Source: a virus (Duplodnaviria; Heunggongvirae; Uroviricota; Caudoviricetes). Taken from it: a DNA stretch of 22,019 nt. The notes under the pieces are model-generated. The model was not told the origin of the DNA, ran no database searches, and worked only from the letters and a program-made list of their open reading frames with translations. Position 1 is the stretch's first letter. The number at the start of each line of letters is the position of its first letter. Where the stretch lies: IMG/VR virus record IMGVR_UViG_2585427746_000008. One strand, written 5' to 3'. Both the position numbers and the translations under genes were made by a program. Positions 1,212 through 12,900 of the stretch are shown in pieces.

Positions 1212-1730
1212 TTACGCTTTGGCTTCTTTATGGGTTAAATTGAAATGATGATCCTTGGTTTCATCTCCCTCGAAAATCTCTCTAACCTTTTGATCTGATA
1301 AATTATTAAGGCTCAATGCTGCCAGGCGTCGAATACCTGTTAAAGCGATCAACTCTTGATTCTCTTGATTGCAGAATTCCAGCAATTTTTCTACCCCTTT
1401 CCTTCTCAAGGTGTAAATAACTAATTCTTGCTCTTCTTGGCTCAAAGTGTCGATGAGTTCGAGCAACTCGCTATTGCCACCGTTCTTTTGAGGGGGCTGG
1501 TGTTTTATTTCTGCACTACCTGTAATGATGGAAACAACATGTGCAGGTAAGTCGCTTAAACGGTAGGCAAATGCTCTCCCTCTGATACCAGGTGTAGTTA
1601 CCGAACGTTTTTCCCATCCTTCATTTTTTGCTCGTTTATGAAGCCCAGCCAGAGATGAAGGAAGACCTCCAACCCCCAACAAGTCACTGGCAAGGATCCA
1701 TTCTTGGTCAAGGATCATATCAAACTCCAT
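1212..1730 (-). CDS. Mu c-like repressor with N-terminal winged-helix DNA-binding domain
   Basis: Leftward ORF directly inside the left end, as in Mu. The motif LPSSLAGLHKRAKNEGWEKR is nearly repeated at the N-terminus of the transposase (LPSSLAGLHKKAKREAWKTR), the arrangement known for Mu repressor and MuA. The real start may be the second Met at 1718, which has a GGAG upstream. Confidence 0.75.
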   Translation of the reverse strand: MEFDMILDQEWILASDLLGVGGLPSSLAGLHKRAKNEGWEKRSVTTPGIRGRAFAYRLSDLPAHVVSIITGSAEIKHQPPQKNGGNSELLELIDTLSQEEQELVIYTLRRKGVEKLLEFCNQENQELIALTGIRRLAALSLNNLSDQKVREIFEGDETKDHHFNLTHKEAKA

Positions 1731-1946: not shown

Positions 1947-2192
1947 GTGAGTCTTATTGAAGATTGGTCTTCCGCCGATATAAAGGCAGCCTTAGAAAAA
2001 CGCGATACCAATTTGTCACGTTTATCAAGGGAAAATAATTTGCAGCCTAGGACTTTGGGTAATGCTTTGCGAGTTCCCTACCCTAAAGGTGAAAAGATAA
2101 TTGCTAGGGCTATAGGTGTAGAGCCACAGGTTATTTGGCCTACTAGATATGAACGACGTGCGCGGAGGAAATATGTGGGTTGCAATGACTGA
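1947..2192 (+). CDS. ner: Ner-like DNA-binding protein (Ner/Nlp family)
   Basis: 81-aa ORF with GTG start as first gene of the early operon. Resembles Mu Ner in size, position and motifs (LSRLSREN..., PKGEKIIA, PQVIWPTRY versus Mu PKGEQIIA, PEVIWPSRY). Confidence 0.8.
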   Translation: MSLIEDWSSADIKAALEKRDTNLSRLSRENNLQPRTLGNALRVPYPKGEKIIARAIGVEPQVIWPTRYERRARRKYVGCND

Positions 2193-4257
2193 ATTGATTT
2201 CATTCAGTGACCTACCTAGTTCTTTGGCAGGTCTGCACAAAAAAGCAAAGAGGGAAGCGTGGAAAACGCGGCTAAAACCAGGGGTAAAAGGGAAAGTTTT
2301 AGAGTGTGAAATAGGGGCTTTGCCTTTAACTGTTCAGCAGGCAGTACGCGAACGCTATGCCCTGCAACTGATGACGCAAAAAGCCGATGAATCACCGGCT
2401 CCGGTAGTGACAAAGGCCAGGCGCTCACCTGCCGTGGTTGATGCGGTGGAGGCATATCGCGGATCACCACAACTGATGCTCGAACGCCTCAATGCCCTGA
2501 CTGAAAACCAGCGCCAGGTGGCTGATGCACGAATCGCGATCGTCAGCGAAGTTCTGAAAGTCGCGCAACAACCTGGTTTCAGCTGTGCGAAGGCTATCCG
2601 GTTTATCGTTGACAACCTGGCACGTTCGCAACTGGACGAGCGCATTGTGGCAATGGTTGAGACGGCGAACGCCAAAAAGGGAAACAGCCGTGCGTTGAGT
2701 GAAATCACGCTGAAACGCTGGATTGCAGCCTTTAACAAGGCGCAGAACGCCGCTGAACGCCTGCTTTTGCTGGCACCTGGTAAGCGCCAGGAAATAAAAG
2801 CCGAAGATATTAACTGGCTGCCCGAATTTCTGGCGCAGTATCGCCAGTCAAACGGCCGACCAATGACCGAGGCTTACGAGGATTTTGTCGCTGAATGGCA
2901 GCACCGGCACGCTGATGAGCCTTATATGCTCGATATCATGCCGTCTTACGACACCATCCGCCGCGCAATGAAGAAACTGCCGGAAGTGGTGAAACAAAAA
3001 GGCCGGGTGACCGGCAGTGAATACCGCCAGCTTGAGGGATTCACGCGCCGCGACTGGTCCAGAATGCCGGTGAATTATGTCTGGATTGGTGACGGTCACG
3101 GCATGAAGCTGAAATGCAGGCACCCGGTTCACGGGCGGCCATTTGCACCGGAAGTGACCTTTGTTATCGACGGTGGCACGCGCTTTGTGGTGGGCTGGAG
3201 CCTTGACCTGGCTGAAAATGTTTTCGCCGTAGCCGGTGCCATACAGTACGGTATTCGTAATCACGGCAAACCGTTTCTGTATTACTCGGATAACGGTTCC
3301 GGGGAAACCGCCGACATCCTGGATAAGGAAGTTGTGGGGATCCTGCCGCGACTGGGGATTAATCACCCAACCGGGATTGCCGGTAACCCGCAGGGACGGG
3401 GCATTATCGAACGGCTTAACCGCACGTTACCGATGCGTATAGCCCGTAAATACCGCACCTATTTCGGGAAAGGTGCAGATCGCGAGACGTTACGCAAAAC
3501 CAACCGCGATTTACGCTCGGCATTTACCGCCCTGCAACAGGGCAAACGGCTGAACGCCCGGCAACAGTCAGCGATGCGTGATTTACCGTCCTGGTCTGAA
3601 CTGATTGATGCCATTCGTGATGGCGTTGAGTGGTACAACAACCGGCCGCACGATGAATTACCCATGAAGCCGAACGGGAAGCATTACAGCCCGGCGGAGT
3701 TCAGAAAAAAACGCCTGGCAGAAGAGGACACGGAAATTGAATGGCTGTCCGATGTTGAGCTGCGGGATATGTTCCGGCCAATGGTGGAACGCCCTGTAAG
3801 ACGCTGTGAAATACGCTGGCTGAATAATATTTACTACGCGCCCGAGCTGAGTGATGAGCATGGCCGCAAGGTGCTTATCAGCTATGACATTCATGATGCC
3901 GAACGAATTACCGTACGTCGCCCGGATGGCAGCGTGATTTGCGAGGCGGTATGGGACGGCAATAAACGCGAAGCCTTCCCGGTCAGCGCGGAATACTACA
4001 AACAGCAGCAACGCCTTAAAGGTATGCGTAAACGCGCAGAGGAAAAAATCCGTGATGCCGAGGATGAGGTTGTCAACGTGCTGGAGCACAAGCCGCAGGA
4101 GCCCTGGCTGGAAAACATATACCGCCCTGTGGGTAATACGGTGACCGTTCAGCAACCTGCCGTTGATGATGAGCCTGATGAAGAATACGAGCGTAATTTC
4201 CAGCGGGGATTGCAGTTGCTCGAAGCGAAATTAAAAGAAAATGACCCTCTGGCCTGA
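2173..4257 (+). CDS. DDE transposase (MuA-like)
   Basis: Roughly 695 aa. N-terminal winged-helix motif shared with the repressor. Catalytic-core-like motifs VWIGDGHG, YSDNGSGE and GRGIIERLNRTL are consistent with a D-D-E triad. GGAGG lies 4 nt upstream of ATG 2173; the gene overlaps the ner 3' end. Confidence 0.9.
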   Translation: MWVAMTELISFSDLPSSLAGLHKKAKREAWKTRLKPGVKGKVLECEIGALPLTVQQAVRERYALQLMTQKADESPAPVVTKARRSPAVVDAVEAYRGSPQLMLERLNALTENQRQVADARIAIVSEVLKVAQQPGFSCAKAIRFIVDNLARSQLDERIVAMVETANAKKGNSRALSEITLKRWIAAFNKAQNAAERLLLLAPGKRQEIKAEDINWLPEFLAQYRQSNGRPMTEAYEDFVAEWQHRHADEPYMLDIMPSYDTIRRAMKKLPEVVKQKGRVTGSEYRQLEGFTRRDWSRMPVNYVWIGDGHGMKLKCRHPVHGRPFAPEVTFVIDGGTRFVVGWSLDLAENVFAVAGAIQYGIRNHGKPFLYYSDNGSGETADILDKEVVGILPRLGINHPTGIAGNPQGRGIIERLNRTLPMRIARKYRTYFGKGADRETLRKTNRDLRSAFTALQQGKRLNARQQSAMRDLPSWSELIDAIRDGVEWYNNRPHDELPMKPNGKHYSPAEFRKKRLAEEDTEIEWLSDVELRDMFRPMVERPVRRCEIRWLNNIYYAPELSDEHGRKVLISYDIHDAERITVRRPDGSVICEAVWDGNKREAFPVSAEYYKQQQRLKGMRKRAEEKIRDAEDEVVNVLEHKPQEPWLENIYRPVGNTVTVQQPAVDDEPDEEYERNFQRGLQLLEAKLKENDPLA

Positions 4258-4334
4258 AATAAAAAAATAACCCGAGCGGCGACTCAGGTTATTTGATTAA
4301 ACTCGGAGAACTGTCTCAACGCGAGGTGAATAAT

Positions 4335-5267
4335 ATGACCGATATAAACGATGTAATCAAGACCATTGATGAACTTATTGATGGCGGCGTGCTGACGCAG
4401 TATGCCATCGCCAGAGAGGCGGGAATTTCCGACGGCACATTATCGGCTTTCCGCAAGGGGAAATATAAAGGCGATAACGCCGCTGTGGCTGCTTCCCTGC
4501 GCTCCTGGTATGAGAACTGGAATAAACAAAGCGCACTGCCGGAACCGCCGCAGTTTGTGGAAACTCAGACAGTCCAGGAGCTGCGCGCACTGTTTCAGGC
4601 GGTTCGCCTGATGGGCTGTATTAACGTTATTGTGGGCGTACCGGGTGTGGGTAAAACGGCCACTGCCCGTAATTACTGCCAGGAGCAACCAAACACCTGG
4701 ATGATCACCCTGTCACCCGCGCACTCCAGCGTCACGGAGTGTCTGCTGGAGCTGGCCGATGCGCTGGGGATTGATTACACCCGCGCGAACAAAGGGGCAT
4801 TATCCCGCGCCATCCGCCGTCGCCTGATGGGAACGCGTGGACTGGTGATTGTGGATGAGGCGGATCATCTTGGTATTGACGGTCTGGAGCAACTCCGGGC
4901 AATTCAGGACGCCACGGGGATCGGGATGGTGCTTATTGGTAACCCGCGCGGATTGTTTAAAGGTGGACGCCGCGCCTTTGATGATTTATCGCGCCTGTTC
5001 AGCCGTCTTGCCCGTACAAAACAACTTCGCAAGGCCAAAAAGGCGGATGTGCTGGCCATTGCCATGGCGTGGGGGATCAGTGGTGAGGCTGAGCTGGCCG
5101 TCATGCAGGCTATCGCTGAAAAGCCGGGAGCGTTACGCGTTCTGACACATACGCTTAACCAGGCGTGGCTCACCGCCAGCGGTGAAGGCGCGGCGCTGAC
5201 AGAAAAACATATTAATGCGGCCTTTAAAGAGGTTTATACCAACCCTGAATTACTCTCACAGGTGTGA
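4335..5267 (+). CDS. Transposition helper ATPase (MuB-like AAA+)
   Basis: Walker A motif GVPGVGKT and Walker B motif VIVDEADHL. Lies immediately downstream of the transposase. GAGGTGA RBS precedes ATG 4335; the ORF track start at 4293 lacks an RBS. Confidence 0.85.
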   Translation: MTDINDVIKTIDELIDGGVLTQYAIAREAGISDGTLSAFRKGKYKGDNAAVAASLRSWYENWNKQSALPEPPQFVETQTVQELRALFQAVRLMGCINVIVGVPGVGKTATARNYCQEQPNTWMITLSPAHSSVTECLLELADALGIDYTRANKGALSRAIRRRLMGTRGLVIVDEADHLGIDGLEQLRAIQDATGIGMVLIGNPRGLFKGGRRAFDDLSRLFSRLARTKQLRKAKKADVLAIAMAWGISGEAELAVMQAIAEKPGALRVLTHTLNQAWLTASGEGAALTEKHINAAFKEVYTNPELLSQV

Positions 5268-6619: not shown

Positions 6620-7150
6620 ATGGCTAAACGCGTTACAAAATTAAAGGCCGCAGCCGAGGCGGCACCGCAGACCCGGGAAGAAGTCAGTCGCGATATCCGT
6701 CGCTTTGGGGATATGCAGCGAGAGGCGCTGCGCCTGGAAACGGCAATGAATGATGAAGTGGCAGAAATCACCGCCCGTTATACGCCGCAGATTGAAAACC
6801 TTAAAAAAGAAATCAAAGTGCTTTTTAAGGGGATTCATGACTGGTGCAAAACCAACCGCGATGAGCTGACGAACGGTGGCGAAACCAAAACTGCCAATCT
6901 GACAACCGGAACGGTGTCATGGCGGCTGGAAAAGCCATCATGCAGCGTCAGCCGTGATGTGGAAGGTGTGATTGAAATGCTGCGCCGTATGGGGCTTGAG
7001 CGTTTCATCCGCACGAAAGAGGAAGTGAATAAGCAAGCCATTCTGGCGGAACCGGATGCGGTAAAGGGTATTGCCGGTATTAAGGTGAATAAAGGCGCTG
7101 AAAGTTTTTCTGTCGAGCCTTTTGAACAGGACGCCGGACTGAATAAATAA
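6620..7150 (+). CDS. gam: Gam-like host-nuclease inhibitor (Mu Gam / Ku-like DNA end-binding)
   Basis: 176 aa with blocks recalled from Mu Gam: MAK...K..AA, LRLETAMNDEVAEIT, NRDELTNGG, TANLTTGTVSWR, LERFIRTKEEVNK. AAGGAAA RBS upstream. Confidence 0.85.
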   Translation: MAKRVTKLKAAAEAAPQTREEVSRDIRRFGDMQREALRLETAMNDEVAEITARYTPQIENLKKEIKVLFKGIHDWCKTNRDELTNGGETKTANLTTGTVSWRLEKPSCSVSRDVEGVIEMLRRMGLERFIRTKEEVNKQAILAEPDAVKGIAGIKVNKGAESFSVEPFEQDAGLNK

Positions 7151-8845: not shown

Positions 8846-9397
8846 ATGATGAAATTACAACCCATGGGGCGAAAAGGTCGTGCACCTGCTCATGTCCGCC
8901 CGTGGACACCTGAAGAAGATGCGCTGCTGATTGCGCTTTATTCCTCCACCCCGGTTAAGGATATTGCCGCCAGAATAAAAAGAAGTGTCTGGGCCGTATA
9001 TAACCGGACTGGCGTATTGCGCAGTACATACCCGGAGTTGCTGAAATATAAACGACCGCGATTTACACCTGATGAAGATAAATTTATCCGAAAAAATGCC
9101 CGGACAATGACCTGCCAGCAAATGGGGGATTATCTCGGACGTAATAAAGACTCTGTCAGGTGCCGCGCAGGAATGATTGGTGCCGGATTAACAAAGTGCG
9201 GTGAGTTACGCCCCGGCACACGTATATCTGATGAGGATGTTCGTCTTATACGTGCACTACGGGATTCCGATTACCCTCGCCGTCTGTCATTCCGGGAAAT
9301 TGGCGAAAAGTTTGGCATATCTGAACATTCTGCTCACGCTGTTTATTACCGTCGACGGACCGCCGAGGACGCTGTATTACGGGAGTTAACGCCATGA
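8846..9397 (+). CDS. putative DNA-binding protein with three tandem helix-turn-helix-like repeats (Myb/SANT-like)
   Basis: Three spaced repeats: WTPEEDALLIALY...IAARIKRSVWAVYNR, FTPDEDKFIRKN...MGDYLGRNKDSVRCR, ISDEDVRLIRALR...IGEKFGISEHSAHAVYYRR. Strong AGGGGGTGA RBS. Confidence 0.5.
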   Translation: MMKLQPMGRKGRAPAHVRPWTPEEDALLIALYSSTPVKDIAARIKRSVWAVYNRTGVLRSTYPELLKYKRPRFTPDEDKFIRKNARTMTCQQMGDYLGRNKDSVRCRAGMIGAGLTKCGELRPGTRISDEDVRLIRALRDSDYPRRLSFREIGEKFGISEHSAHAVYYRRRTAEDAVLRELTP

Positions 9398-10140: not shown

Positions 10141-10426
10141 TTCGCAGTTGTTCTGGTGTTTATATATCACATCGTTTTTCGGTGCATTCGTCATTACACG
10201 ATGGCTGTGCCGGAAAGTTATCAGTATTTTTCATAAAAAATACCTGATTGGGCTGGCGGCGGCTTCTCTGATTAATGCACTTGCCAGATATCATAAGGGG
10301 GAATACTACTCAAGAATAAAAACTGTTGATGGTTTTAATATTTTTGTGATTCCTCCGGAGTATCGGGTTCAGCTCGATCGGGAAAATAAAATCTATCATA
10401 TCAGCAGGAGTGTTGATACAGCATGA
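10130..10426 (+). CDS. small membrane-anchored protein (98 aa)
   Basis: AAGGAGA RBS upstream. N-terminal hydrophobic helix LFWCLYITSFFGAFVITRWL. Low-GC sequence. Confidence 0.5.
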   Translation: MDSSSQLFWCLYITSFFGAFVITRWLCRKVISIFHKKYLIGLAAASLINALARYHKGEYYSRIKTVDGFNIFVIPPEYRVQLDRENKIYHISRSVDTA

Positions 10427-10932
10427 GAGGGAAACTGATATCCGCCATTCATGTGGCAAAGCGCGAGCTTGCCCTGGATGATGAAACCTATACATTCGTG
10501 CTGCTGGCAGCCACCGGCAAATCCAGTTGCCGGGATATGTCACCGGATGAGTTATCCCGCGTGCTGGATGTTTTCAAAAAACGCGGTTTTAAAGTGCGTC
10601 AGAAACCGGTTAACCGGGCCTTAAAACCGGGTACGGTGACCGCCAAAATTCGCGCCATCTGGAAGGTAATGCACCGGCAGGGCTTTATCGCTGATGGCGG
10701 GGAAACGGCCCTTAACCGCTGGGTGAAGTCGCAGACGGCCGCGCAGAACGGTGGCGAAGGTGTGGCTAACTGGCAGTGGCTGGAGCAACACCCCGCACTG
10801 GCCTCGGATGTGCTGGAGCGTCTCAAACGCTGGCACCGTCGCAAGATGCTGGATGTGCTGGGGATGTCAGCGCGTACAGTGATGAGTTATGAGCGCGTTT
10901 GCAGGCTGTATGAAGAATCCTCCCCTTTTTAA
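10423..10932 (+). CDS. gemA: GemA-like protein (Mu gp16 family)
   Basis: N-terminus LISAIHVAKRELALDDETY...ATGKSSCRDMSPDEL is characteristic of the Mu gp16/GemA family as I recall it. It is the last gene before the early terminator, as in Mu. Confidence 0.7.
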   Translation: MRGKLISAIHVAKRELALDDETYTFVLLAATGKSSCRDMSPDELSRVLDVFKKRGFKVRQKPVNRALKPGTVTAKIRAIWKVMHRQGFIADGGETALNRWVKSQTAAQNGGEGVANWQWLEQHPALASDVLERLKRWHRRKMLDVLGMSARTVMSYERVCRLYEESSPF

Positions 10933-10936
10933 CCCC

Positions 10937-10968
10937 AAATCCCGCCACAGCGCGGGATTTTTATTTTA
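10937..10968 (+). terminator. Rho-independent terminator ending the early operon
   Basis: 9-bp stem AAATCCCGC / GCGGGATTT (10937-10945 and 10952-10960) with a 6-nt loop, followed by TTATTTT. Confidence 0.7.
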
Positions 10969-11002
10969 AACTTGCCCTGTGTAATGATGACCGGAGGCGG
11001 GT

Positions 11003-11425
11003 ATGGCTGAAACACAGATGAGCATGTTTGGTGACAGCGAACAGCTGCACGCGCTGATTGACCGTCTGGATGATATTCCTGATGATGAGCTGAAAAAGAA
11101 CTGGCCCGGCACGCTGCGGGACCTGGTTGATGTGATCAGTGCTGAACTGCACCGTCAGGGGATTGAACCTGCTCAGGCGGGAATGCTTGCCCGTAAGGTT
11201 GCAGCCGCACAGGCCGGGTACATGGGCGGGCGTGGTTATTATCTCCCGGTCGGTGAATCCCTTTTCACCGAACTGCGCAATAATGAAATTTTTTCCCGCT
11301 GGAGCCAGGGCGAAAAAATTGAAACCCTGCGCCGCCACTACCAGATGTCAGAGACGCAGATTTACTCCGTTATCCGCAACCAGCGTCGCCTGCATCAGGA
11401 ACGCACGCAGCCACGGCTTTTCTGA
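11003..11425 (+). CDS. Mor/C-family transcriptional activator
   Basis: 140 aa with a C-terminal HTH (ETLRRHYQMSETQIYSVIRNQRRL) resembling Mu Mor/C, including the conserved YLP..G motif (GRGYYLPVGESL). Located after the early terminator and before the lysis genes; GGAGG RBS. Confidence 0.75.
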   Translation: MAETQMSMFGDSEQLHALIDRLDDIPDDELKKNWPGTLRDLVDVISAELHRQGIEPAQAGMLARKVAAAQAGYMGGRGYYLPVGESLFTELRNNEIFSRWSQGEKIETLRRHYQMSETQIYSVIRNQRRLHQERTQPRLF

Positions 11426-11496
11426 TATTCCGCAAATCCTGCCCACTTTTTCCCACGGTTACGCTGACTCAGAGAACACCATGAGACAGCGTAACA

Positions 11497-11997
11497 ATGC
11501 CAAAACTCCCCGCACCCCTGCGTAAAAAGCTGATTGCCCTTGTTCTGGCCGGAGCCGGGACGTTCACCATTGCCACGCACTACACCGGCTACTGGGAAGG
11601 GAAAGAAAACACCACGTACATTGATCCCACCGGCACCCCCACCATCTGTTACGGCCATACCGGCCCGGATGTGAAACCGGGGATGACAAAAACTGATGAA
11701 GAGTGTCTGGAGCTGCTGGAAAAGGACATGAAATGGGCCTTTGCGGCTATCGATCGTCATGTTCAGGTGCCGCTTACCCGTGGTCAGACGGTGGCGCTGG
11801 CCTCCTGGATTTTCTGGGCCGGTGAAACGAACTTTCGCAACTCCACGCTCCTGCGCCTTATCAATGCCGGGCAGATGCCCGCGTCCTGTAAGCAGTATAT
11901 CCGCTGGATTTATTCAAAGGGGGTAAAACTCCCCGGTCTTGAGGCCCGCCGTTCGGCGGATGAATGGTTATGTCGTTACGATTTGCCGAAAGTCTGA
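11497..11997 (+). CDS. SAR endolysin (T4-type lysozyme fold, glycoside hydrolase family 24)
   Basis: N-terminal signal-anchor-like segment LIALVLAGAGTFTIA followed by catalytic-region motif YWEGKENTTYIDPTGTPTICYGHTG and NFRNSTLLRLINAG, resembling P21-type SAR lysozymes. Confidence 0.85.
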   Translation: MPKLPAPLRKKLIALVLAGAGTFTIATHYTGYWEGKENTTYIDPTGTPTICYGHTGPDVKPGMTKTDEECLELLEKDMKWAFAAIDRHVQVPLTRGQTVALASWIFWAGETNFRNSTLLRLINAGQMPASCKQYIRWIYSKGVKLPGLEARRSADEWLCRYDLPKV

Positions 11998-12460: not shown

Positions 12461-12662
12461 ATGGCTGGCTGACTGCCTGGTCCCTCCTGCGCCGGAGCCG
12501 TTCACGTTTGGGGCATCGGTCACTTACAACCTGCAACTGCTGGCGGTAATCAAGAACTGCAACGTGGACAAGGCCAGTATTCGTCGTCTGGAGGCGCGGC
12601 GACAACATGAATTTACTGATATGGCCGGAACGCCTGCTGTTCCGGCAGGAAAGACGAAGTAA
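12291..12662 (+). CDS. o-spanin (Rz1-like outer-membrane lipoprotein), overlapping the i-spanin gene in another frame
   Basis: Lipobox LSGC followed by a proline-rich mature region (SVKYVPVQPVPIPAEW...PPAPEP). Starts inside the i-spanin gene in a different frame and extends past its stop. The exact start is uncertain; ATG 12291 gives an unusually long leader and an internal TTG may be used. Confidence 0.6.
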   Translation: MKSNRTFSTARNSRALSAGRWQQCLRPLFLCLMMWLSGCAGPSVKYVPVQPVPIPAEWLADCLVPPAPEPFTFGASVTYNLQLLAVIKNCNVDKASIRRLEARRQHEFTDMAGTPAVPAGKTK

Positions 12663-12669
12663 GGAAAAA

Positions 12670-12900
12670 GGTATGGATGATTCAGATTGTGCTCAGGCTG
12701 TCATGGAGCGGGCAACAGAACGCGCCCTTTGTGACCGGCTGACACGTAAGCGCCGGGTGGCGGAGACACCGGGCAGGCGTGTATGCGCGGACTGCGGGGG
12801 TGACATTCCGGCTGCCCGTCTGGTTGCCGTGCCGGATGCCATCCGTTGTGTGAACTGCCAGAACATCATGGAGGCCGGTCATGTGGGTCAGCATCGTTAA
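12670..12900 (+). CDS. TraR/DksA-family C4 zinc-finger protein
   Basis: CxxC...CxxC pattern CADCGGDIPAARL...AIRCVNCQ typical of phage TraR-like proteins. AAGGAAAAAGG RBS before ATG 12670. Confidence 0.7.
   Translation, partial: GMDDSDCAQAVMERATERALCDRLTRKRRVAETPGRRVCADCGGDIPAARLVAVPDAIRCVNCQNIMEAGHVGQHR

Follow-up and report, generated by a model that had tools for sequence, protein, structure and literature searches.

The Sp18-type Mu-like prophages of Escherichia coli carry a single gene of the Mor/C family of transcriptional activators, and on sequence grounds this gene is the counterpart of the late activator gene C of phage Mu and not of mor. It was found in a stretch of DNA of 22,019 nucleotides, here called the window, where it occupies positions 11003–11425 of the plus strand, behind a terminator-like hairpin that follows gemA and directly ahead of the lysis genes. 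The model that we consider probable as a whole is that the encoded protein is the sole, C-type activator of the phage, that it acts at late promoters sharing a common box, that control passes from early to late, and that the hairpin serves as the terminator of the early operon.

The prophage and its single Mor/C gene

The window is the left 22 kb of a Sp18-type Mu-like E. coli prophage. Reading from the left end it contains a repressor-like gene (1212–1730, minus strand), ner, the genes for transposase A (2149–4257) and B (4293–5267) and gam (6620–7150), followed by gp11-like genes and gemA and then by the lysis, terminase, portal, F, G, protease and major head genes. A prophage in E. coli AST198 is 99.9–100% identical to the window across 1–2.2 kb around the activator gene, and two Stx-converting phages contain regions annotated as an “inserted Mu-like phage” with 93% DNA identity to it. 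Of 5,426 complete E. coli genomes, 231 (approximately 4%), EHEC included, contain the region from gemA through the activator gene to lys. The majority of the E. coli copies are of a subtype with 83% identity, which occurs in O157:H7 and other EHEC and which we take to be the Sp18 type. The copies inside the Stx phages are annotated with a target duplication, and this, together with the number of genomes that carry the region, suggests that the element is active. The prophage type is already known, and the annotations of hundreds of genomes assign its activator to the Mor family.

The gene ahead of the hairpin (10423–10932, plus strand) matches Pfam GemA (PF06252) with an E value of 1.2e-29 and is presumed to be the last gene of the early operon; in E. 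coli genomes it is labelled “gp16 family protein.” On the other side the first lysis gene, which encodes an endolysin of the lysozyme type (11497–11997, plus strand; PF00959, E 1e-36), starts 71 bp past the activator gene and is followed by an Rz1-like LysC gene. Searches of the activator region with ARAGORN and Rfam gave no matches.

[quoted passage not shown] It matches the Pfam Mor profile (PF08765) over positions 2–107 of 107 with an E value of 6.7e-31 and 106.9 bits (cutoff 24.9), PHROG 532, “late transcriptional activator,” at 1.4e-44, and the solved structures of Mu C (9l0x, E 2e-28) and Mor (1rr7, E 2.5e-11). The ATG at 11003 is preceded at 5 nt by a Shine–Dalgarno sequence, GGAGG (10993–10997, plus strand), that is kept in the O157 type. 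Mor/C proteins are small, at about 100–150 amino acids, and have an acidic N-terminal and a basic C-terminal half (PMC2582627); the net charges of the two halves are −6 and +4 in the activator, −3 and +5 in Mu C and −9 and +8 in Mor. The beta-strand linker with its glycines, which joins the dimerisation domain to the helix-turn-helix, is also present. Within it G75, Y80 and P82 are invariant, and G76 nearly so, in an alignment of 48 family sequences, while the complete GGR..Y.P pattern (G75, G76, R77, Y80 and P82) is invariant in an alignment of ten close relatives.

A second family member was sought with a profile HMM built from 144 diverse members, comprising representatives drawn from 1.84 billion proteins together with Mu Mor, Mu C and the window protein. 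The HMM was run with filters off (--max) against all six-frame stop-to-stop ORFs of at least 25 amino acids from the window, the complete AST198 prophage and Mu. The window gave a single match, ORF 11003–11425, at an E value of 1.6e-51 with the next best ORF at 15, and the complete, near-identical AST198 prophage gave the same single match. In Mu the same HMM recovered both paralogues, C at 1e-47 and Mor at 1.7e-34. The first-pass annotation of this DNA had contrasted the two paralogues of Mu with a single recognisable Mor/C protein here, lying past a terminator that follows a GemA-like gene and directly before the lysis genes, and this description holds in every part. It had also suggested that one of the unassigned early ORFs might be a divergent Mor, to be looked for by searching the early ORFs with a Mor/C profile; HMM, hhalign and profile–profile searches all failed to find such a homologue.

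We therefore see hardly any likelihood that an early ORF encodes a Mor too divergent for sequence methods. Several early ORFs do lack an assigned function, and one of them, an ORF of 183 amino acids (8846–9397), gives a weak match to the family alignment (hhalign E 8.8e-4, probability 23%), which is the highest among the early ORFs, all of them below 25%. The similarity is however limited to a generic helix-turn-helix stretch, and the probability was 4% in a profile–profile comparison that used a 15-sequence profile of this ORF. The invariant GGR..Y.P linker is missing in all other ORFs, every relative examined likewise gives a single gene, and the same tools recognise the family across the Proteobacteria and even in a Faecalibacterium phage. 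In the 183 amino acid protein two Myb/SANT-like repeats are combined with a helix-turn-helix at the C-terminus. The protein matches PHROG 323, “transcriptional regulator, D5-like,” which is the product name of gp9 in the Mu record.

The key to the identity of the activator lies in the comparison with the two Mu paralogues. It shares 40% of 136 aligned residues with Mu C, whereas its identity to Mor (gp17), a member of the same family, is 28%; Mor and C are 37% identical to each other. In a neighbor-joining tree of 144 sequences the activator and Mu C fall within a clade of seven sequences, apart from the Mor branch, and Mor joins this clade only at a node that spans 33 sequences. Mu C (gp21, Mup21) shares with the activator its length of 140 amino acids, its Pfam family and its place directly upstream of the endolysin gene, as well as the GGR..Y.P linker and the acidic and basic halves, and the activator has near-consensus candidates for both clamp-binding motifs. 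[quoted passage not shown] The counterparts in the activator, QMSMF (residues 5–9) and QPRLF (residues 136–140), each deviate from the consensus at one position. Its closer similarity to Mu C, its length, its place before lys and its near-consensus clamp motifs together place the protein among the C-type late activators. P0164, which at 51% is nearest to Mor, also sits directly before an endolysin gene, which indicates that the split between Mor and C is not a deep functional divide. As both MuC clamp-binding motifs are kept in near-consensus form, the activator probably needs the beta sliding clamp too, and this predicted requirement would couple late transcription to phage replication.

Candidate late promoters

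Three sites in the prophage share a 19-bp box and its spacing from a −10-like hexamer. The first box, TTTCTGATATTCCGCAAAT (11419–11437, plus strand), is Plys-like and overlaps the stop codon of the activator gene (TGA, 11423–11425). Its −10-like hexamer, TACGCT (11460–11465, plus strand), lies 30 nt past the CCGC of the box and has no −35; with three of six consensus matches it falls below the threshold of the promoter scan and was not listed by it, and the −10 region is homologous to the Plys region of Mu, TAGACTGCCATCAGAGAA. The second, PI-like box, TTTCTGAAGTCCCGCAAAA (19606–19624, plus strand), is upstream of the head protease gene and its CCGC is again 30 nt before a −10-like hexamer, TATGCT (19647–19652, plus strand; 4/6 consensus matches, best −35 2/6). 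The third, TTTTTGAATTTCCGCAAAA, was located in the full prophage outside the window, 29 nt ahead of TATTCT. It was found with the seven-base core alone and then fitted the entire degenerate 19-mer, and it lies past the invertase gene and ahead of cargo genes, the position of Pmom in Mu.

All three boxes are intergenic and on the phage plus strand, and each is followed after 29–30 nt by a −10-like hexamer that has no −35. They can be written as TTTYTGA-NN-T-YCCGCAAAW, an imperfect dyad centred near −44, a consensus that is derived from the same few sites that it describes. A fourth, PP-like box was not found, so that the candidate late promoters of the prophage number only three, two in the window and one outside it. 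No base of the Plys box differs in the O157 subtype or in any of the 29 IMG/VR relatives, and the PI-like box has a recognisable variant, TTCCTGAAATCCCGCAAAA, in the O157 type. A recognisable version of the Plys box, TGAGTCGCCGCAAACC, stands 30 nt before TACTCT in a locus with a 50%-identical activator, and a related Plys-like box is carried by locus L007.

The binding sites of MuC and Mor are 16-bp dyads centred at −43.5 in promoters without a −35 (PMC2582627, PMC4390567, PMC4287176). The presumed targets of the activator resemble those of Mu C in lacking a −35 and in having a box centred near −44, while the box itself differs from the TTAT-N5-6-ATAA of Mu. The three boxes are probably the targets of the activator. 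By analogy with MuC, the activator would bind the imperfect dyad near −44 in place of the missing −35 and, once bound, recruit sigma-70 RNA polymerase. The promoters served in this way would be those before lys, before the head protease gene and, outside the window, before the cargo genes in the mom position.

The junction between gemA and the activator gene

The hairpin that separates gemA from the activator gene begins 4 nt past the gemA stop codon (TAA, 10930–10932) and has the form AAATCCCGC-CACAGC-GCGGGATTT (10937–10960, plus strand), followed by TTATTTTAAA, in which the T-run TTATTTT ends at 10967. The stem has nine pairs, of which five are G-C, the loop has 6 nt, and the tail of the RNA is UUAUUUU. 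The RNA is predicted to fold with −13.5 kcal/mol (z −4.1; 0 of 200 shuffles fold as well), and the hairpin is the best plus-strand terminator-like site in the first 14.5 kb. Positions 10937–10967 thus combine a stable, G+C-containing stem-loop with a U-run immediately after it, as in an intrinsic terminator, and the comparable terminator-like hairpin that follows mor in Mu (Mu 9176–9196) suggests that the early transcript ends here. Such a terminator would close the early operon after gemA and keep leaky early transcription out of the activator and lysis genes. The 18-base stem motif was found in at least 120 stretches of unrelated bacterial contigs, which points to a generic terminator form and not to a phage-specific protein site.

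The order gemA, hairpin, activator gene, lysozyme gene is conserved. It was found, with a single Mor/C match each, in the window, the O157 subtype, a Salmonella locus and locus L014, whose activators are 67% (Salmonella) and 49% (L014) identical to that of the window, the latter being 57% identical to Mu C. Locus L012 (activator 53% identical) has the same order with a 77 amino acid ORF overlapping the start of the activator gene, and L007 keeps the order and has no stable hairpin. The stem is kept in the O157 Sp18 type, Salmonella L006, L012 and L014, where it occurs in two copies. The Mu-like prophage of O157:H7 strain Z1813 (not Sakai), which we take as Sp18-type, has the same gene order at 83% nucleotide identity from gemA to lys, and its hairpin stem, T-run and Plys box are identical to those of the window, with one loop base differing in some copies. 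It represents a different subtype and departs from the window in its immunity region, in some of its early ORFs and in the 5′ leader of the activator gene.

The junction between gemA and the activator gene also collects morons, which are reverse-strand genes in E. coli M1 and L152 and a gene for a secreted protein in L014. Each moron is flanked by two copies of the hairpin, one of which stays directly before the activator gene. An apparent variant without the left hairpin arm, L142, proved to have an IS4-like insertion in the loop.

The activator gene begins 35 bp past the end of the T-run and 42 bp past the stem, with no ORF between. A stricter consensus scan gave no sigma-70 promoter in the 70-bp gap between gemA and the activator gene, no late-type box was found upstream of the activator gene, and no Mor-type site (AGTAA-N6-TTAAT) could be recognised there by reading the sequence. 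An extended −10 promoter, TGTAATGAT (10980–88), was rejected, since its start would fall inside the Shine–Dalgarno sequence and it is not conserved. The remaining candidate is a hypothetical −10 hexamer of a −35-less promoter, TAAACT (10967–10972, plus strand), for which the best −35 is GCCACA (10944–10949) with three of six matches. Every relative examined has a −10-like hexamer past its T-run, TAAACT in the O157 type and M1, TATAGT in Salmonella L006 and TATACT in L014 and L007, and none of these has a −35 better than 3/6. Its offset from the hairpin is the same for the TATAGT of L006 as for the TAAACT of the window, and a few nucleotides closer in L007 and in both copies of L014. Among the 29 IMG/VR relatives, 27 share the GCCACA...TAAACTT block in full length, unchanged but for one loop base of the O157 type; in these 27 the leader downstream of the block varies between subtypes.

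A strong hairpin without a consensus promoter behind it means that something must still gate the expression of the activator. Read-through from the early promoter is the simplest model; with just 4 nt between the end of gemA and the stem, ribosomes finishing translation there could get in the way of hairpin formation. Alternatively, the activator gene may have a promoter of its own, weak or dependent on an activator, that shares sequence with the terminator; a pure read-through model sits awkwardly with the moron-bearing variants, which keep a second copy of the hairpin directly before the activator gene. By either route, read-through or a weak −35-less promoter with TAAACT as its −10, the activator would be made at low level and late. 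No plus-strand terminator-like site was found between 11425 and 11497, so that polymerase that has passed the hairpin would run on into the lysis genes. Mu differs in having a terminator between C and lys, and L014 is like Mu and unlike the window in this respect.

The junction in the window, with its stop codon, hairpin and T-run, and −10-like hexamer without a −35, mirrors the mor–Pm junction of Mu, except that mor precedes the terminator and the activator gene of the window comes after it. We located Pm by its published bases from −57 to −52 (Table 3, PMC4390567). The Mor site (Mu 9173–9188) and the left half of the hairpin that follows mor overlap, and 10 nt past the T-run of that hairpin stands the −10, TATCCT.

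This likeness raises the possibility that three tiers are kept and that an early DNA-binding protein other than Mor activates a −35-less promoter overlapping the terminator to drive the C-type gene, which we regard as unlikely. The layout is that of the Mor-dependent Pm, with the hexamer in every member of the clade examined lacking a usable −35, and in the moron-bearing variants the hairpin and the block downstream stay with the activator gene. The obvious candidate for the regulator is the 183 amino acid Myb/SANT and helix-turn-helix protein (8846–9397), a PHROG 323 protein like Mu gp9 that is conserved in the E. coli and Salmonella relatives. Mu however has a member of that family and still needs Mor. 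No binding motif was identified upstream of the hexamer, the variants differ to the left of the hairpin, and −10-like hexamers easily arise by chance in the A/T-rich DNA past a terminator.

It is quite improbable, in our assessment, that the activator instead controls itself, with a trickle of read-through providing protein that binds near the hairpin and boosts its own promoter, a switch and not a cascade. Read as DNA, the stem consists of two 5-bp inverted arms around a 6-bp spacer, which is the format of Mor/C sites (PMC4390567), and the ATCCCGCCACAGC of the hairpin resembles the core of the late box, GTCCCGCAAAACC, at 9 of 13 positions. The complete late box is nevertheless unmatched at the hairpin with up to three mismatches, and no conserved −10-like hexamer lies at the distance from the CCGC core that is seen in the candidate late promoters. 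The centre of the CCCGC-N6-GCGGG dyad is exactly at −43.5 with respect to TGTAAT (10980–85), but this hexamer is absent from the O157 subtype. The Mor site of Mu is offset from its hairpin and has A/T-rich arms (mapped via PMC4390567). Nor is the dyad significantly enriched in the phage (27 occurrences in the window against 16.3 expected, a number reached by 2 of 100 shuffles, and 44 against 35.0 in L002), and the stem motif is generic in bacteria. We therefore rejected the hairpin as a Mor/C site.

A single activator in Mu-like phages

A single Mor/C activator is the norm for Mu-like phages, and the two of Mu are the exception. When the window protein was compared by tblastn with 50,697 phage records, 36 records matched, and two places were found only in Mu, D108, SfMu, Mu_3F6, PhiR68_1 and the Yersinia vB_YpM phages. 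The consensus of the family HMM found 97 places in 83 records of the phage collection; the 14 records with two places were all Mu-type (Mu, D108, SfMu, PhiR68_1 or Yersinia vB_YpM types), while phages of Pseudomonas, Vibrio, Burkholderia, Shewanella, Pseudoalteromonas, Ralstonia, Klebsiella and Faecalibacterium had one place each. Six-frame HMM scans of BcepMu, HS6 and MuM16-1 gave one match each. Although our literature search found little in the way of an explicit statement on single-Mor/C phages, “the late regulator Mor/C” has been counted as a single core gene of transposable phages (PMC8705779), and the transcriptome of Pseudomonas phage Fc02 places gemA and mor among the genes of the early (pE) operon (PMC9936078).

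The position of the single gene is not the same throughout. BcepMu (gp01), Shewanella MuM16-1 (p13), Pseudoalteromonas HS6 (gp44) and the Pseudomonas phages with a Mor of the Fc02/D3112 type have one Mor/C gene per genome, near gemA. In these phages no terminator stands between the activator gene and gemA or the other early genes that it overlaps or abuts, making it a distal gene of the early operon, and their cascade is presumed to run from early to late. The Mu C clade, to which the window belongs, differs from the BcepMu and HS6 type in having the hairpin between gemA and the activator gene and in the activator gene adjoining the lysis genes.

A three-tier cascade of the Mu kind has an early operon that ends with a Mor paralogue, and a terminator-bounded middle operon with a Mor site at Pm. 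No such paralogue was found in the window or in the whole prophage, and the window has no such operon: C of Mu lies with gp18–20 in the Mor-dependent middle operon, and the activator gene of the prophage does not. With neither Mor nor a middle operon, control would pass from early to late, as in most Mu-like phages, and gene content, along with the anatomy of the promoters, supports the reading that there is no separate Mor-driven middle tier. The first-pass annotation had suggested that the regulatory cascade may have collapsed to one tier. One activator and no Mor tier fit the evidence, but the tblastn survey indicates that this is the rule and not a peculiarity.

Loss of mor by deletion, leaving a lineage that is defective in regulation and an arrangement without function, is very unlikely. 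Taking mor and gp18–20 out of the Mu layout leaves exactly gemA, hairpin, C and lys, as such a deletion would. Mu is not inducible by mitomycin C. The same is true of Sp18, the Mu-like prophage of E. coli O157:H7 Sakai, a property that could be read as a defect had it not been shared with Mu, and Sp18 was predicted to be intact (PMC2669165). The layout and intact ORFs are kept across the 83%-identical E. coli subtypes and in Salmonella and other hosts, where the activators are 49–67% identical, and copies have recently transposed into Stx phages. The majority of Mu-like phages also have a single activator.

The combination that is particular to the Mu C clade is an activator gene isolated by a terminator in the absence of Mor. 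This may mean either that an early protein other than Mor acts at the overlapping −35-less promoter, or that there is no middle regulator and a leaky terminator together with dependence on the clamp and replication gives the delay, a proposal to which we assign a small chance. In its first form, if true, it would mean that the middle tier of Mu has been replaced by a non-homologous regulator.

The finding matters little outside Mu biology, and the means by which the activator comes on in the absence of Mor will concern specialists alone. Annotators should treat the activator gene of Sp18-type prophages as a late, C-type one, and the common box provides a handle for predicting late promoters in these prophages. 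The wider comparison corrects a natural bias, in that the textbook cascade from Mor to C is the exception, and a single Mor/C activator is the common design of transposable phages.

Cargo at the gemA-activator junction

Cargo genes (morons) accumulate at the junction between gemA and the activator gene, which is an insertion hot spot. In the E. coli M1 prophage (L005 1733-2446) the insert carries a reverse-strand gene, in the relative L152 (412-1160) it carries a different reverse-strand gene, and in the more distant relative L014 (4376-5000) the gene runs forward and its 140-aa product has a signal peptide. On either side of each of these three inserts there is a copy of the AAATCCCGC-N6-GCGGGATTT hairpin. 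One IMG/VR prophage, L142 (1-1160), holds a gene for a 373-aa IS4-like transposase that sits inside the hairpin loop, and this insertion takes away the left hairpin arm directly 5' of the activator gene.

Other elements of the window

A long inverted repeat (GTTACGCTGaCTCA ... TGAGaCAGCGTAAC, 11458-11495) reaches from the lys promoter's -10-like hexamer almost to the start codon of lys. Together with its surroundings (11415-11500, 86 nt) it folds at -21.4 kcal/mol with a z-score of -3.35, and both arms are identical to the window in the O157 subtype. The repeat may serve as a leader structure, or as an operator governing endolysin expression. Just 3' of the lysis genes lies a gene for a TraR/DksA-type zinc-finger protein (12607-12900, PF01258). 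The loci of Salmonella, L007, L014, L015 and Pseudoalteromonas HS6 have kept it at the equivalent position. In the Mu record no zinc-finger gene is annotated there.

Among the early genes, 8846-9397 encodes a 183-aa protein that carries a pair of Myb/SANT-like repeats and, at its C-terminus, a helix-turn-helix; the protein is retained in the E. coli and Salmonella relatives. It is assigned to PHROG 323, described as "D5-like regulator", and the product of Mu gp9 bears a matching name. A 13-pair palindrome with A and T runs on either side (4265-4294) sits in the 35 bp that separate the transposase genes A and B, and the terminator scan lists it as a minus-strand terminator-like site. The RefSeq annotation of the near-identical prophage L002 includes a "tRNA-OTHER" (25132-25211) between the F-like and the G-like gene, corresponding to about 18890-18970 on the minus strand of the window; ARAGORN detected no tRNA anywhere in the window, and Rfam gave no match at gathering thresholds.

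A third late-type box

Outside the window, L002 has a third late-type box, TTTTTGAATTTCCGCAAAA, on the minus strand (10741-10759), with TATTCT 29 nt further downstream. It lies between an upstream invertase gene and a downstream 2-kb DUF6645 gene, which is where Mu has Pmom. Further along L002, at the right end of the prophage, are com and mom.

Genome position and the Mor-versus-C distinction

Within the representative set, the protein nearest to Mu Mor is P0164 (L136 82-486), at 51% identity. An endolysin gene is directly downstream of it, which places this nearest relative of Mor in the "C position". Outside Mu, therefore, genome position does not track the distinction between Mor and C.
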